DNA from: a virus
Taxonomy: Duplodnaviria > Heunggongvirae > Uroviricota > Caudoviricetes
Length of the DNA: 11,304 nucleotides
Direction: 5' to 3' (one strand)
Virus record (IMG/VR): IMGVR_UViG_2526164662_000024
Coordinates: 1-11,304 of that record
Position numbers: made by a program. Below, in pieces: positions 1 through 6,000 of this stretch (positions are counted from its first letter, which is position 1; the number at the start of each line of letters is the position of its first letter).

Positions 1-3000
1 AAAACAGCGTCAGCCATTGCCGCCGGTTATTCGGCGAAGACCGCCAGGGTTAAAGGCTCGCAGCTGGCAAAAGATCCTGAGGTGCTTGCGTTTATAGCCC
101 GTAAACAATGCGAGACGGTGGAGGTGGATGAGGTTCCTGTTTACCGGCAGAAAAAATCAGAGCAGGAGGATAAACCCCGTCGCCGTGAGGCGGCTGCAAT
201 ACCACAGCCGGACGAAAACAATCTGGAGATGCCACCGTCCGCGGTGATGTCTCCTGGTATTGAATATATGGAGGATGGTCTTCCCGATCCGGTGAAAGCG
301 ATGGGGCGTCTTCTGGTGGAGAACCTTTGTATTGATCCGAGGCTGGCGCTGGATGCGGCTTGTCGTCTGGCGCAGTTCACGCACCATAAAAAAGGGGATG
401 CCGGTAAAAAATCGGCAAAAGGTGATGCGGCGAAAAAAGCGGCTAACCGTTTTGCGGTGCCACCGCCACCCCGACTGGTGGTGAATAACGATAATGAGGG
501 CAACGGATGATACCTGTATGGAGCACAGCCTGCCCGGACTGGGCAGAGCGCCTGAAAAAGGGGCTGTCGATTATTCCGGATCCGATTTATCCGGACGAGG
601 CCGCACATGCCCTGGCGATTTTTAAACAACTGCGGATTGTGGATGCACCTGGTAGCCCTACGTTCGGGGAGTCCTGTGCACCGTGGGTGTTTGACCTGGT
701 GGCGGCCCTGTTTGGCTCCTACGATGCGCAGACCGGTGTACGCCATATCAAGGAAGTTTTTATCCTTATCCCCAAGAAAAACTCGAAGTCCACGCTGGCC
801 GCGGGGATCATGATGACTGCACTGTTACTGAACTGGCGGCAGGCGGCGGGTTACACGATTCTGGCCCCGACTGTGGAGGTGGCGGCCAACGCCTTCAACC
901 CTGCCCGGGATATGGTACGACGTGACGATGATCTGGATGACCTCTGCCAGGTGCAGACCCATATCCGGACCATCACCCACCGGGTGACGGACACCACCCT
1001 GAAGGTGGTGGCAGCCGATCCGAATACGGTGTCCGGTATCAAGTCCGTGGGTACGCTGATTGATGAGTTGTGGCTGTTTGGCAAGCAGTGCAAGGCGGAG
1101 GACATGTTACGTGAAGCCATAGGCGGCCTTGCCTCCCGCCCGGAAGGGTTTGTGGTGTATACGACCACCCAGTCGAATGAACCGTCCGCCGGGGTGTTCA
1201 GACAGAAACTGCAGTACGCCCGGGATGTGCGCGACGGCAAAAATTCATGATCCGCACTTTCTGCCGGTGATATTTGAACACCCTCCTGAAATGGTGGAAA
1301 GCGGGGCTAACCTGCTGATGGAAAACCTCGCCATGGTCAATCCGAATCTCGGCTATTCAGTGGATGAGGCCTTTCTGTACCGGGAGTACCGTAAAGCCCG
1401 GGAAGCCGGTGAAGAGACATTCCGGGGGTTCATGTCAAAACACGCCAATGTGGAAATTGGTCTTGCCCTGCGCTCTGACCGCTGGGCGGGGGCTGATTTC
1501 TGGGAAGAGCAGGGCCGTTGTATCAGCCTGGACGATATCCTGCGTCGTGCTGATGTGGTGACGGTGGGGATTGACGGCGGGGGCTGGATGATCTGCTGGG
1601 GATGTATGTGATTGGGCGTGACCGGGAGACCCGCGAATGGCTGGGCTGGGGCCATGCCTGGGCGCATGAAACCGCGGTGGTCCGACGGAAGAGCGAGGCG
1701 TCCCGGTTTCAGGATCTTGTTGCCTGTGGAGATATGACCATTGTCCGGCGTGTCGGGGATGACACGGCGGAAGTGGCGGAATATGTGCGTCGCATTCATG
1801 AGGCTGAGTTACTGGACCATATCGGTATTGACCCGTCAGGGGTGGGGCAGATTCTGGATTCACTGGCGGAAGCCGGGATCCCCGACGGAATTGTGGTGGG
1901 GATAAGCCAGGGCTGGAAACTGGGCGGGGCCATTAAAACCACCAAGCGCAAACTGGCTGAAGGGGTGCTGGTGCATGGTGACCAGCCCCTGATGGCCTGG
2001 TGTGTCGGCAATGCCCGGGTGGAGCCTAAAGGTAACGCCATTCTTATCACCAAACAGGCCAGTGGACGGGGAAAAATTGACCCGCTGATGGCGCTGTTCA
2101 ATGCGGTCTCCCTGATGTCCCTTAACCCGGAACCGAAAAAGAAAGAATATGCGGTTTTTTTCATATAACCCTGTTCACACTGTAACCATCACGAACCGCT
2201 CCGGCGGTTTTTTATTTTCAGGAGGCTGATGTGACTCTTAAACGGGCCTGTTCCCTGCTGACGGTGAAATCCTTCAGTGAGGATGAACGGGTGATCACCG
2301 GGATTGCGTCAACGCCTTCTCCGGATCGGGATGGTGACATCCTGGAGCCGGAGGGCGCGGAGTTTGGCAGTGCGATACCGTTTCTCTGGCAGCATGACCA
2401 TTCCCGCCCGGTGGGGCAGTGTACGGTGCGCCGGGTCAGCGAAGGGCTGGAATCACGGCAACACTGGTGAAGCCCGTACCGGATATGCCGTCGCAACTGG
2501 CTGCCCGGCTGGATGAGGTCTGGGCGGCCATTAAGACCGGGCTGGTCAGGGGGCTGTCCGTGGGCTTCCGTCCCCATGAATACACCTTTCTGGACGGAGG
2601 CGGACTGCATTTTCTGCGCTGGGAACTGATGGAGGTGTCTGCCGTCACCGTGCCCGCGAATGCGGAATGCACCATCCGGACCATTAAATCTTACGACCGC
2701 CCGTTTTCTGCCGCGTCCGGCAACCGGAAACCGGTGGTGAAAATCGCATCTTCTGCCGGCGCTGCGGCACAGTCAACAACCGTTTTTCATAAGGAAAAGA
2801 CCATAATGAATATTGGCGAACAGATTAAAAGTTTTGAAAACAAGCGTGCAGCGCTGGCAGCCTCCCTTGAGGAGGTCATGACCAAAGCCGCAGAGGAAGG
2901 GCGCACGCTGGATGTGGAGGAGGAAGAGCATTACGACAACACCGCAGCGGAAATCCGTCAGGTGGATGCGCACCTGAAGCGCCTGCGTGAACTGGAAGCC

Positions 3001-6000
3001 GGTAAGGCCGCCACGGCGCAGCCGGTGAAACAGGCCGGTAACGGGAATGTGGCCGCGGTGGCTTCTGCGCCGGTGATCCGTGTGGAGCAGAAACTGGATA
3101 AGGGGATTGGCTTCGCCCGCTTTGCCAAATCGCTGGCTGCGGCTAAAGGCGTCCGATCTGAAGCCCTGGAAGTGGCCCGTCGTCAGTATCCGGATGACAG
3201 TCGTCTGCATCATGTCCTGAAATCGGCAGTGGGCGCGGGGACCACCACGGATCCGCAGTGGGCAGGCAGCCTGTCTGAATATCAGGAATACGCACAGGAC
3301 TTTATTGATTACCTGCGTCCGCAGACCATTATCGGGCGATTTGGTCAGGGCGGGATCCCTGCACTTCGTCAGGTGCCATTCAATATCCGTGTGCACGCCC
3401 AGGTGTCCGGCGGTGCTGCCGGCTGGGTGGGTGAGGGTAAGGCAAAACCCCTGACGAAGTTTGATTTTGAATCCATCACCTTCAGTCATGCGAAGGTGTC
3501 GGCCATTGCGGTACTGACGGAAGAATTGATCCGTTTTTCCAGTCCGGCTGCTGATGCACTGGTCCGTAATGCGCTGGCGGAAGCGGTGGTGGCGCGTCTG
3601 GATACAGACTTTGTGGACCCGAAAAAAGCCGCAGTGGCAGATGTCTCCCCGGCGTCCATCACCCATGATGTGAAGGGCACGGCATCAACCGGTAACCCGG
3701 ATGCGGATGCAGAGGCTGCGTTTGGACAGTTTGTGGCAGCAAACCTGCAGCCCACCGGTGCGGTCTGGCTGATGTCCAGCACCAATGCCCTGGCACTGTC
3801 CATGCGTAAAAATGCGCTGGGTCAGAAGGAATACCCGGACATGACCCTGCTGGGTGGCTCCTTCCAGGGGCTGCCGGTGATTGTCTCCCAGTACGTGGGT
3901 GACCAGCTGGTGCTGGTGAATGCCCCGGATATTTATCTGGCGGATGACGGCGGCGTGGCAGTGGATATGTCCCGCGAGGCATCACTGGAAATGCAGTCTG
4001 AGCCGACCGGCGACAGTACCACGCCGTCCCCGGTGGAGCTGGTTTCCATGTTCCAGACAGGCAGCGTGGCCATCCGTGCGGAGCGCTGGATCAACTGGCG
4101 TCGTCGCCGTACTGCGGCGGTGGCGGTGATCACCGGAGTGAACTACGGCAGTGCGTCCGGCGGCTGAGTCTGATAAGGAGGACGGGAGGCGTGCGCCTCC
4201 CGTAACAGGTTATGGCAAAGATCCGATATCTGCAGGGCACGCATGATGCCCGGGCCGGGGATATCCGTGATGTGGCACAGCCGTGTGCGGAGGTGCTGGT
4301 TCGCCTGGGAAAGGCGGAGTACATCACGGTGCGACGTCCGGCAGGTCAGAAAAAGAAACGTGATGCGGAGCATGGCGAATGTGGAACCTTTTACGGCGAA
4401 CCCGAAAAAACCAGAAATCAGGACGTGACGTAAGAGAGGCGGGCTGGACCAGCCTGTTTCAGGCGGTGGCTGAGCCCTTTTCCGGCGCCTGGCAGCAGGG
4501 CGTGAAAGCCGATCCTGAAGCCGTCCTCTCCTTTCATGCGGTGTTTGCATGTATTTCGCTGATATCCCAGGATATCGCCAAAATGCGGCTGCGTCTTATG
4601 CAGACGGATGCGCATGGGATACGCAGGGAAACGCGCCGGGGGGATATTGCCCGCCTCTGTCGTCGTCCCAACGCCCAGCAGAACCGCATCCAGTTTTTTG
4701 AACTGTGGCTGAACGCCAAACTGCGTCATGGCAATACGGTGGTGCTGAAAATCCGTAATGCCCGGGGGCAGATCAAAGAACTGCGTATTCTGGACTGGAG
4801 CCGGGTTGAACCTCTGGTGGCGGATGACGGCGAGGTGTTCTACCGCATCACGCCGGACCGGAACTGCGGGATCACGGAGGCGGTGACGGTGCCTGCCCGG
4901 GAAGTGATCCACGACCGGTTTAACTGTTTTTTTCATCCGCTTATAGGATTGCCGCCGGTGTATGTCGCCGGGCTGGCGGCCACGCAGGGGCATCATATTC
5001 AGGAAAATTCGACGTCTTTTTTCAGAAATGGCGGCAGGCCGTCCGGGGTGATTGAGATCCCCGGCAGTATTACGGAAGAAAATGCGAAAAAACTGAAGAG
5101 CAACTGGGACAGCGGGTATACAGGCGAAAATGCGGGGAAAACGGCCATTCTGAGCAACGGGGCAAAATACAACCCCACGACGTTTTCACCTGTGGATGCG
5201 CAGACGGTGGAACAACTGAAGATGACCGCTGAAATTGTCTGTTCGGTGTTCCGTGTCCCGGCCTACAAGATTGGCGTGGGACAACCGCCTTCCAGTGACA
5301 ACGTGGAGGCGCTGGAGCAGCAGTATTATTCCCAGTGCCTGCAGACGCTGATTGAGTCCATTGAACTGTTACTGGATGAGGCGCTGGAAACGGGGGAAAA
5401 CGAGAGTACAGAATTTGATGTCACCACGCTGCTGAGAATGGACAGTGAGCGGCGCATGAAAACGCTGGGGGATGCGGTGAAAAATACGCTTCTCACGCCC
5501 AATGAGGCCCGTAAACGGGAGAACCTGCCGCCCCTGGCCGGCGGTGATGCACTGTATCTTCAGCAGCAGAACTACAGTCTGGAGGCGCTGTCCCGTCGTG
5601 ATGCCCGTGAGGATCCGTTCGCGTCTGCCGGGAAAACAGTTTCATCACAGCTGCCTGACGGCGCATCTGACGGTAATAAGGCAATCAGTGAAACAGAGCA
5701 TGATGCGGTGAAAGCGATGTTCAGGGGGGATACTGAGAAAATGACGGAACGGGAACTGTCCATTATTCGTGCACTGGGAGAAGAATTCTCCACAGTGCTG
5801 GCGGATTTACAGCGCACATTTGAGGGGAAGATGGCCTCGCAGGCACAAGCGTTTGAAGAGAAACTGACTTCCCTGTCGGCGGTATTACAGAAGCATGTGA
5901 CGGTGGATGAGGTGCGTCCGGTTCTGCAGGCGATGGTGGATGACGCTGTGGGGGCCATTCCGGTACCGCGTGATGGTCGTGATTATGATCCGGATGTACT

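Follow-up and report, generated by a model that had tools for sequence, protein, structure and literature searches.

The 11,304-nucleotide stretch of DNA analysed here (the window; positions 1 to 11,304 of IMG/VR record IMGVR_UViG_2526164662_000024) carries a head gene of an Escherichia coli prophage in which a prohead protease and a major capsid protein (MCP) are encoded together. Window positions 2200-4200 match, with an identity of 90-99.9%, 1260 complete-genome E. coli records (from 1255 of the 5426 genomes) as well as 93 records of phages, the latter being mostly Stx-converting siphophages (phage 2851, BP-4795, YYZ-2008, WGPS6 and phi330, genus Pankowvirus). One 1938-nt coding sequence (CDS) of 645 aa spans the region in the records examined; it is annotated under the names "phage major capsid protein", "major head protein/prohead protease" (the name used in GenBank and RefSeq) or "capsid and scaffold". 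The window DNA is 98-99.9% identical to the major head protein/prohead protease of the Pankowvirus phages and shares the gene order of these references (terS, terL, protease-capsid, small open reading frame (ORF), portal, connector, tail genes); it differs from them only in a one-base loss at 2451, found in the window copy alone, and in an ISEc23 insertion in the tail region. We are confident that this region holds the gene for head maturation of a lambdoid E. coli prophage that is Pankowvirus-like (phage 2851/BP-4795/phi330 type) and that it is a genuine fusion with a conserved internal start, which would probably give rise to two in-frame products.

As the window stands, the gene is interrupted. 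The ORF at 2419..4167 (582 aa) opens with GTG, and its 5′ end is not the true gene start; the reference CDS starts map to a GTG at 2231-2233 preceded by the Shine-Dalgarno (SD) sequence AGGAGG at 2220-2225 (feature 2220..2233; duplex energy −10.3 kcal/mol; this and the other features of the head gene are on the plus strand). Comparison with the references identified a window-specific loss of one base at 2450..2452 (AA for AAA), which leaves the gene as two ORFs, 2231..2470 and 2419..4167, and is the reason that an ORF appears to start at 2419. All 68 other loci compared have AAA at this site, and adding one A at 2451 gives a 645-aa product identical to WP_000173031.1, the CDS product in references L001 and L005. 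The protease-capsid gene is a single 1938-nt gene, 2231-4167 after the base lost at 2451 is restored. The 79-aa family phrog_30146 matches the N-terminal fragment of the split gene, which raised the idea of a recurrent frameshift allele at 2451; this idea was rejected, as no AA variant occurs among the 68 loci.

The first 140 residues of the 645-aa polyprotein are a serine protease; a disordered linker follows (141-192), and the remainder (193-645) comprises a helical scaffold-like region and an HK97-fold MCP. Pfam, which places Peptidase_S78 towards the N-terminus and Phage_capsid towards the C-terminus, agrees with the sequence-only reading that protease and capsid lie in one ORF. The protease domain (2231..2649) belongs to the HK97-family prohead proteases (PF04586, 34.7 bits against a gathering cutoff of 21, residues 48-152; TIGR01543) and was modelled by AlphaFold2 (AF2) with moderate confidence over residues 1-140. 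His55 (2393-2395; LWQH) and Ser110 (2557-2559; GLSxGF), the putative catalytic residues of the S78 motifs, are invariant in 16 aligned homologues. The linker (2650..2805) is of low complexity and hypervariable, with gap-rich, variable homologue alignments and an AF2 predicted local distance difference test (pLDDT) score below 30 at residues 140-193. The capsid portion (2806..4167, stop codon at 4165-4167) belongs to the capsid family (PF05065, 53.1 bits against a cutoff of 24.2, residues 386-635; TIGR01554, 79 bits against 27.5, residues 204-584) and contains an N-terminal helical, delta-like region (~2812-3012; helices at residues 195-222 and 229-261 in a low-confidence AF2 model) followed by the HK97-fold capsid domain (~3385-4134; PF05065). 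A PDB sequence search gave one weak match, the MCP 9d9w (E = 0.0017), and no protease match. The computed masses are 69.0 kDa for the full-length protein and 48.2 kDa from Met193.

This arrangement is widespread. A search of 1.84 billion cluster representatives returned 1183 proteins at E<1e-30, and the best 150 of them were mostly 630-680 aa long, aligned over the whole query and fused. A genome scan built on a nine-sequence alignment found 80 loci from different species at 38-80% identity; among the 79 usable loci, protease and capsid share one ORF in 67 and are two adjacent genes in 12. A protease-capsid fusion in one uninterrupted ORF is reproducible across independent genomes, and the window copy has its only break at 2451. 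Such fusions are already known and annotated: PHROGs has a "major head and protease protein" family, and the NCBIfam model NF045541 is named 'prohead protease/major capsid protein fusion protein', an architecture that is the same as that of the window gene, although the window matches the model only weakly and in part (54 bits against a cutoff of 525).

Internal start signals at the protease-capsid junction

At the end of the linker, an SD-like AAGGAAAAG (2791-2799) lies ahead of an ATG at 2806-2808 (Met193) that is in frame with the ORF at 2419 (2806-2419 = 387), and together they form a predicted internal ribosome-binding site (RBS; 2791..2808; SD energy −6.2 kcal/mol). The sequence-only reading had described this purine-rich segment and ATG, a run of five T (T5) at 2783-2787, and the lack of a stop codon between protease and capsid, and each of these is where it had been placed. 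Its further remark that 2791-2808 resembles a gene start is borne out by stand-alone capsid homologues, which begin at that Met, and by fused homologues, in which the SD and start codon are kept. Alignment to the query begins at residue 193 for the stand-alone MCPs P0262 and P0266 and at residues 194-196 for P0198, P0229 and P0257, and in the split loci the capsid gene begins at the position equivalent to Met193.

An internal in-frame start with an RBS, as in nested genes, proved to be conserved in 68 of 68 fused loci, the codon being ATG in 60, GTG in 5 and TTG in 3. The median anti-SD duplex energy at the junction of the fused loci (−6.2 kcal/mol) was far from that of 2246 other in-frame start-like codons of the same ORFs (−2.4 kcal/mol) and close to that of the true MCP starts in the split loci (−5.7 kcal/mol). 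In a positional SD profile, the signal was confined to one sharp peak formed by 8-mers that begin at −16 to −12, and no other part of the linker gave a signal. The SD motif occurs in varied codon registers (AAA GGA, AAG GAA, AAG GAG GG) while the linker peptide changes, which argues for selection on the RNA rather than on the protein. From these comparisons, ATG 2806 and AAGGAAAAG are judged to make up an internal site of translation initiation that is conserved and is homologous to the place where stand-alone capsid genes begin. The linker of several Enterobacterales homologues (L104-L106, L109 and L111) also contains A7-A8 runs, encoding Lys-Lys, ~31 nt upstream of the internal ATG.

The split relatives bear on how the two layouts are related. 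In Burkholderia phage vB_SBP39 (39% identity over 96% of the query), a homologue with the same unusual gene order as the window, protease and capsid are two genes, and in this phage and the 12 split loci of bacterial prophages the genes are parted by a stop codon or a frame change, unlike the fusion in the window. These loci show that the unfused state is viable. In a neighbour-joining tree of the capsid portion (81 loci), the split loci were scattered among the fused ones, and parsimony gave a fused root and at least 10 changes of state, a count that is indicative only, the tree being crude. With a fused root and this number of changes, the scattered split forms fit a capsid gene that has always been independently translatable.

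We therefore favour, as the probable though by no means certain reading, that the fusion genes of this family are nested gene pairs, in which the conserved internal RBS would yield free capsid protein so that only a fraction of the subunits carry a tethered protease, and in which fused and split layouts would have switched repeatedly through single stop or frameshift mutations. One mRNA would then give two in-frame products, the fusion of protease and capsid (69 kDa) and the capsid protein by itself (48 kDa), and the two could co-assemble through the helical scaffold-like region and the capsid fold that they have in common. Tethered covalently in the long form, the protease would enter the procapsid and would subsequently remove itself, the linker and the scaffold-like region. 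Both the co-assembly and the pattern of cleavage are steps that we infer. No description of protease-capsid fusions as nested pairs was found in the literature searched.

The strongest competitor is a real fusion with a single product, in which all subunits are made as a self-processing 69-kDa polyprotein and the internal ATG and SD are non-functional remnants of an ancestor with two separate genes. Consistent with this view, the fused ORF is continuous and has a strong SD of its own, and protease-scaffold-capsid fusions of actinobacteriophages are described as single genes, and the available portions of those reports do not mention an internal start (PMC7302621, PMC5513430). A relic would be expected to decay, yet all 68 fused loci, at 38-80% identity, retain the start codon, and the interchange of ATG, GTG and TTG among them is typical of start codons. 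Moreover, a correctly spaced SD is kept within a hypervariable linker, at the nucleotide level and across codon registers, and the fused state appears to be ancestral, so that the signals would have been retained over long periods. We regard the single-product explanation as unlikely.

Several points weigh against the nested-pair reading or against parts of the gene model on which it is built. The evidence for internal initiation making the capsid protein alone, which we consider probable, consists of conserved sequence signals. The Mann-Whitney p-value for the junction SD energies ignores kinship among the loci. The SD at the N-terminal start is also strong (median −8.4 kcal/mol), and as a result the ratio of the two products is not predictable. 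TIGR01543 scored 46.5 bits, below its curated equivalog cutoff of 59, and so assigns the protease domain to the family and not to the equivalog. The AF2 model, made from a 16-sequence alignment, has a mean pLDDT of 41.7 and was used coarsely, with approximate domain boundaries. Lastly, the base loss at 2451 may be a genuine private mutation of a decaying prophage instead of an error. In the literature searched there was no report of an internal start in protease-capsid fusions and no proteomics of the 645-aa protein; in the part of the phi330 paper that was available, peptide maps are reported for its podoviruses only (PMC12502783).

The T5 run and the single-base indels of the window

The junction also contains the T5 run at 2783..2787, with TAA at 2790-2792 in the −1 frame and TAA at 2804-2806 in the +1 frame, where it overlaps the ATG as TAATG. 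When short queries carrying T4, T5 or T6 at the junction were matched against complete E. coli genomes, the T5 query, an 81-mer, was the exact best match in 1058 records and the T6 query in none. T4 was exact in a single record, NZ_CP017251.1 (strain NADC 5570/86-24/6564; L188, 987-2922), in which RefSeq flags both the head gene and the neighbouring terL as "frameshifted"; this record probably represents one more assembly prone to errors and not a split form that occurs in nature. A junction pattern that permitted 3-7 bases at the run found 95 viral contigs in IMG/VR, and the run was TTTTT in 99 of 99 occurrences in these contigs and the reference loci. Window positions 2452-4224 have no difference from reference L001, and the same protease-capsid CDS with T5 is carried by phi330, described as a Sanger-sequenced, plaque-forming siphophage with a 55-nm head in the available text of its report (PMC12502783). 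Compared across E. coli records, IMG/VR contigs and homologues, the run is of wild-type length and lineage-specific, and it is not a conserved slippery site.

A stop soon after the run in each alternative frame might suggest programmed slippage at T5, either ribosomal (−1 or +1) or transcriptional, by which some free protease ending at TAA 2790 or TAA 2804 would be made beside the fusion, and tRNA-Phe could re-pair on UUU or UUC within the run. A T run of at least five within 45 nt of the junction, however, is present in only 5 of 68 fused homologues, and at least one out-of-frame stop is found nearby in 65 of 68 loci, as expected by chance near an A-rich SD. The run forms no canonical X XXY YYZ heptamer, and in CGUUUUU the P-site pairing would be mismatched. 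CAU, the 0-frame A-site codon, is not known to be rare in E. coli and provides no obvious pause to drive a +1 shift, and efficient transcriptional slippage is not known to occur on runs as short as five T. Programmed slippage thus seems very improbable.

A related idea was that the out-of-frame TAA in "TTTCATAAGGA" is left over from the protease stop that Burkholderia phage SBP39 has ("TTTCAATAAGGA"). It too was rejected as evidence, because SBP39 branches far away in the tree, TAAGGA-like strings are frequent wherever an SD is A-rich, and an out-of-frame stop is nearby in nearly all fused loci.

Errors do occur elsewhere in the window. Called against three references, the 11.3 kb contain eight single-base indels, seven of them at short base runs, and every indel in the prophage part is of a single base. 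Two are in terL (A5 for A4 at 1239, and one base lost next to a G run at ~1581), one is intergenic (T6 for T7 at 2208, in a terminator-like T-run), one is the loss at 2451 in the protease, one is T6 for T7 at 8439, and three (9011, 9567 and 10811, the first and last within T runs) are in the ISEc23 copy. The loss at 2451 is most likely an assembly error like the other indels, since there are eight in 11.3 kb and some fall in an IS copy that is otherwise 99.8% identical.

The sequence-only reading had taken the junction to be two coupled genes joined by a one-base error in the T run, and a real fusion to be less likely given the other frame changes in the window. These frame changes are real artefacts, but they are located at 1239, at ~1581, at 2451 and inside the IS element, and not at T5. 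A true run of T6 or T4, with separate and coupled protease and capsid genes, would put a TAA just ahead of ATG 2806, and split homologues do occur in other taxa alongside the homopolymer errors of this assembly; against this, T5 is carried by 1058 complete-genome records of E. coli, by 95 viral contigs and by several phage isolates (one of them Sanger-sequenced), T6 is found in no record and T4 only in the one flagged 'frameshifted', and the window is without difference from L001 at 2452-4224, so that the chance of an artefact is negligible. The alignment with homologues that the sequence-only reading had proposed as a check gave the same continuous ORF with T5 in relatives, contrary to its expectation, and isolated phages and 67 of the 79 distant homologues carry the continuous ORF. 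Because T5 is universal at this junction and the homologues share the continuous ORF, which that reading had itself named as the outcome that would refute it, sequence comparison indicates that the T5 run is the normal sequence of a genuine fusion and that the artefact reading is refuted. The T5 run should accordingly not be "corrected"; the real errors of the window are elsewhere.

Neighbouring genes and the insertion element

Upstream of the head gene, terL (window 82-2168) is broken into several ORFs by the indels at 1239 and ~1581-1584, which leave the 342 nt between them out of frame; the references have an intact 1662-nt terL. Between the end of terL at 2168 and the head gene, a terminator-like hairpin with its T-run (2193..2218, plus strand) is the sole terminator-like site in 2000-4500.

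Downstream, the order of genes is unusual, with the portal gene after protease and capsid and a small ORF between them (window 2231-6958), and is the same in vB_SBP39 (L003 1905-5451). The small ORF (4212-4433; 73 aa; phrog_829) shares its last 55 nt with the beginning of the portal gene (4379); every reference labels its product a hypothetical protein, and a small ORF is present at the same position in SBP39. The portal protein (4379-6958) is unusually long at 859 aa, with the Phage_portal domain covering residues 54-382 only, and in its C-terminal extension a 162-nt (54-aa) unit is present in 3.3 tandem copies with 95% identity (5966-6498). A T/G difference affects the portal stop codon, which is TGA at window 6956 and GGA in AREA_502 (L005 7557), giving a CDS of 2580 and 2586 nt, respectively.

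The insertion sequence is an IS66-family, ISEc23-like element of 2533 bp on the minus strand (8481-11013) with terminal inverted repeats of the form GTAAGCG..., flanked by an 8-bp duplication of the target, GGTTTTTT (8473-8480 and 11014-11021). The element lies in the T-run that separates the tail completion gene from the gene for the major tail subunit, and the indels at 9011, 9567 and 10811 fragment its transposase ORF in the window copy. The prophage-IS-prophage stretch was matched in three complete genomes (AREA_502, ST131 strain 4224 and strain 1449).

Comparison with known capsid-maturation systems

The protease gp4 and capsid protein gp5 of HK97 belong to the same families as the two parts of the window gene (Peptidase_S78; TIGR01554, PF05065), and gp5, like the capsid portion described here, has an N-terminal helical scaffold-like region before the capsid fold. 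In HK97, the scaffold 'delta domain' is fused to the capsid protein, whereas the protease is a separate protein that enters the procapsid non-covalently; in the window gene the protease is covalently joined to the N-terminus of the capsid protein. The two also differ in the position of the portal gene, which is downstream of the capsid gene in the window and between terminase and protease in HK97.

Protease-scaffold-capsid fusion genes have been described in small-genome actinobacteriophages (Arthrobacter clusters AN, AM and AU; Microbacterium clusters EE and EL; Rhodococcus RRH1), and in the portions of these reports that were available their layout is the same as that of the window gene, with an N-terminal protease for capsid maturation, a segment resembling a scaffold and a capsid subunit of the HK97-like kind (PMC7302621, PMC5513430). 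Likened to the window gene by architecture, they are at most distant relatives of it and possibly arose as independent fusions. The "prohead protease fusion" of a CBASS paper was rejected as a parallel, as it is a protease-scaffold and not a protease-capsid protein.

What is new here is the combination of a conserved, putative internal start with recurrent interconversion of fused and split layouts, a lead that is well supported at the level of sequence comparison. It offers a testable explanation of how a protease can be fused to every copy of the capsid gene and yet be present in only a fraction of the subunits, and of the coexistence of fused and split layouts in one family. Prophages of this type are present in about a fifth of complete E. 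coli genomes, Stx-converting phages included, and because they are so common a correct gene model affects the annotation of many clinical genomes.

The closest precedents for such an arrangement are the nested genes lambda C/Nu3, herpes simplex UL26/UL26.5 and Haloferax virus HFTV1 gp17/gp17.5, in which a long ORF encodes a protease together with an assembly protein and an internal in-frame start yields the assembly protein alone, setting the stoichiometry of the two (bioRxiv 10.64898/2026.09.13.751334). The window gene resembles these systems in its conserved internal SD and ATG and differs from them in that its predicted nested product is not a separate scaffold but the capsid protein itself, with a built-in scaffold. 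If the fusion genes of this family are indeed nested pairs, the strategy of lambda C/Nu3 and herpesvirus UL26/UL26.5 would extend to the capsid protein itself.

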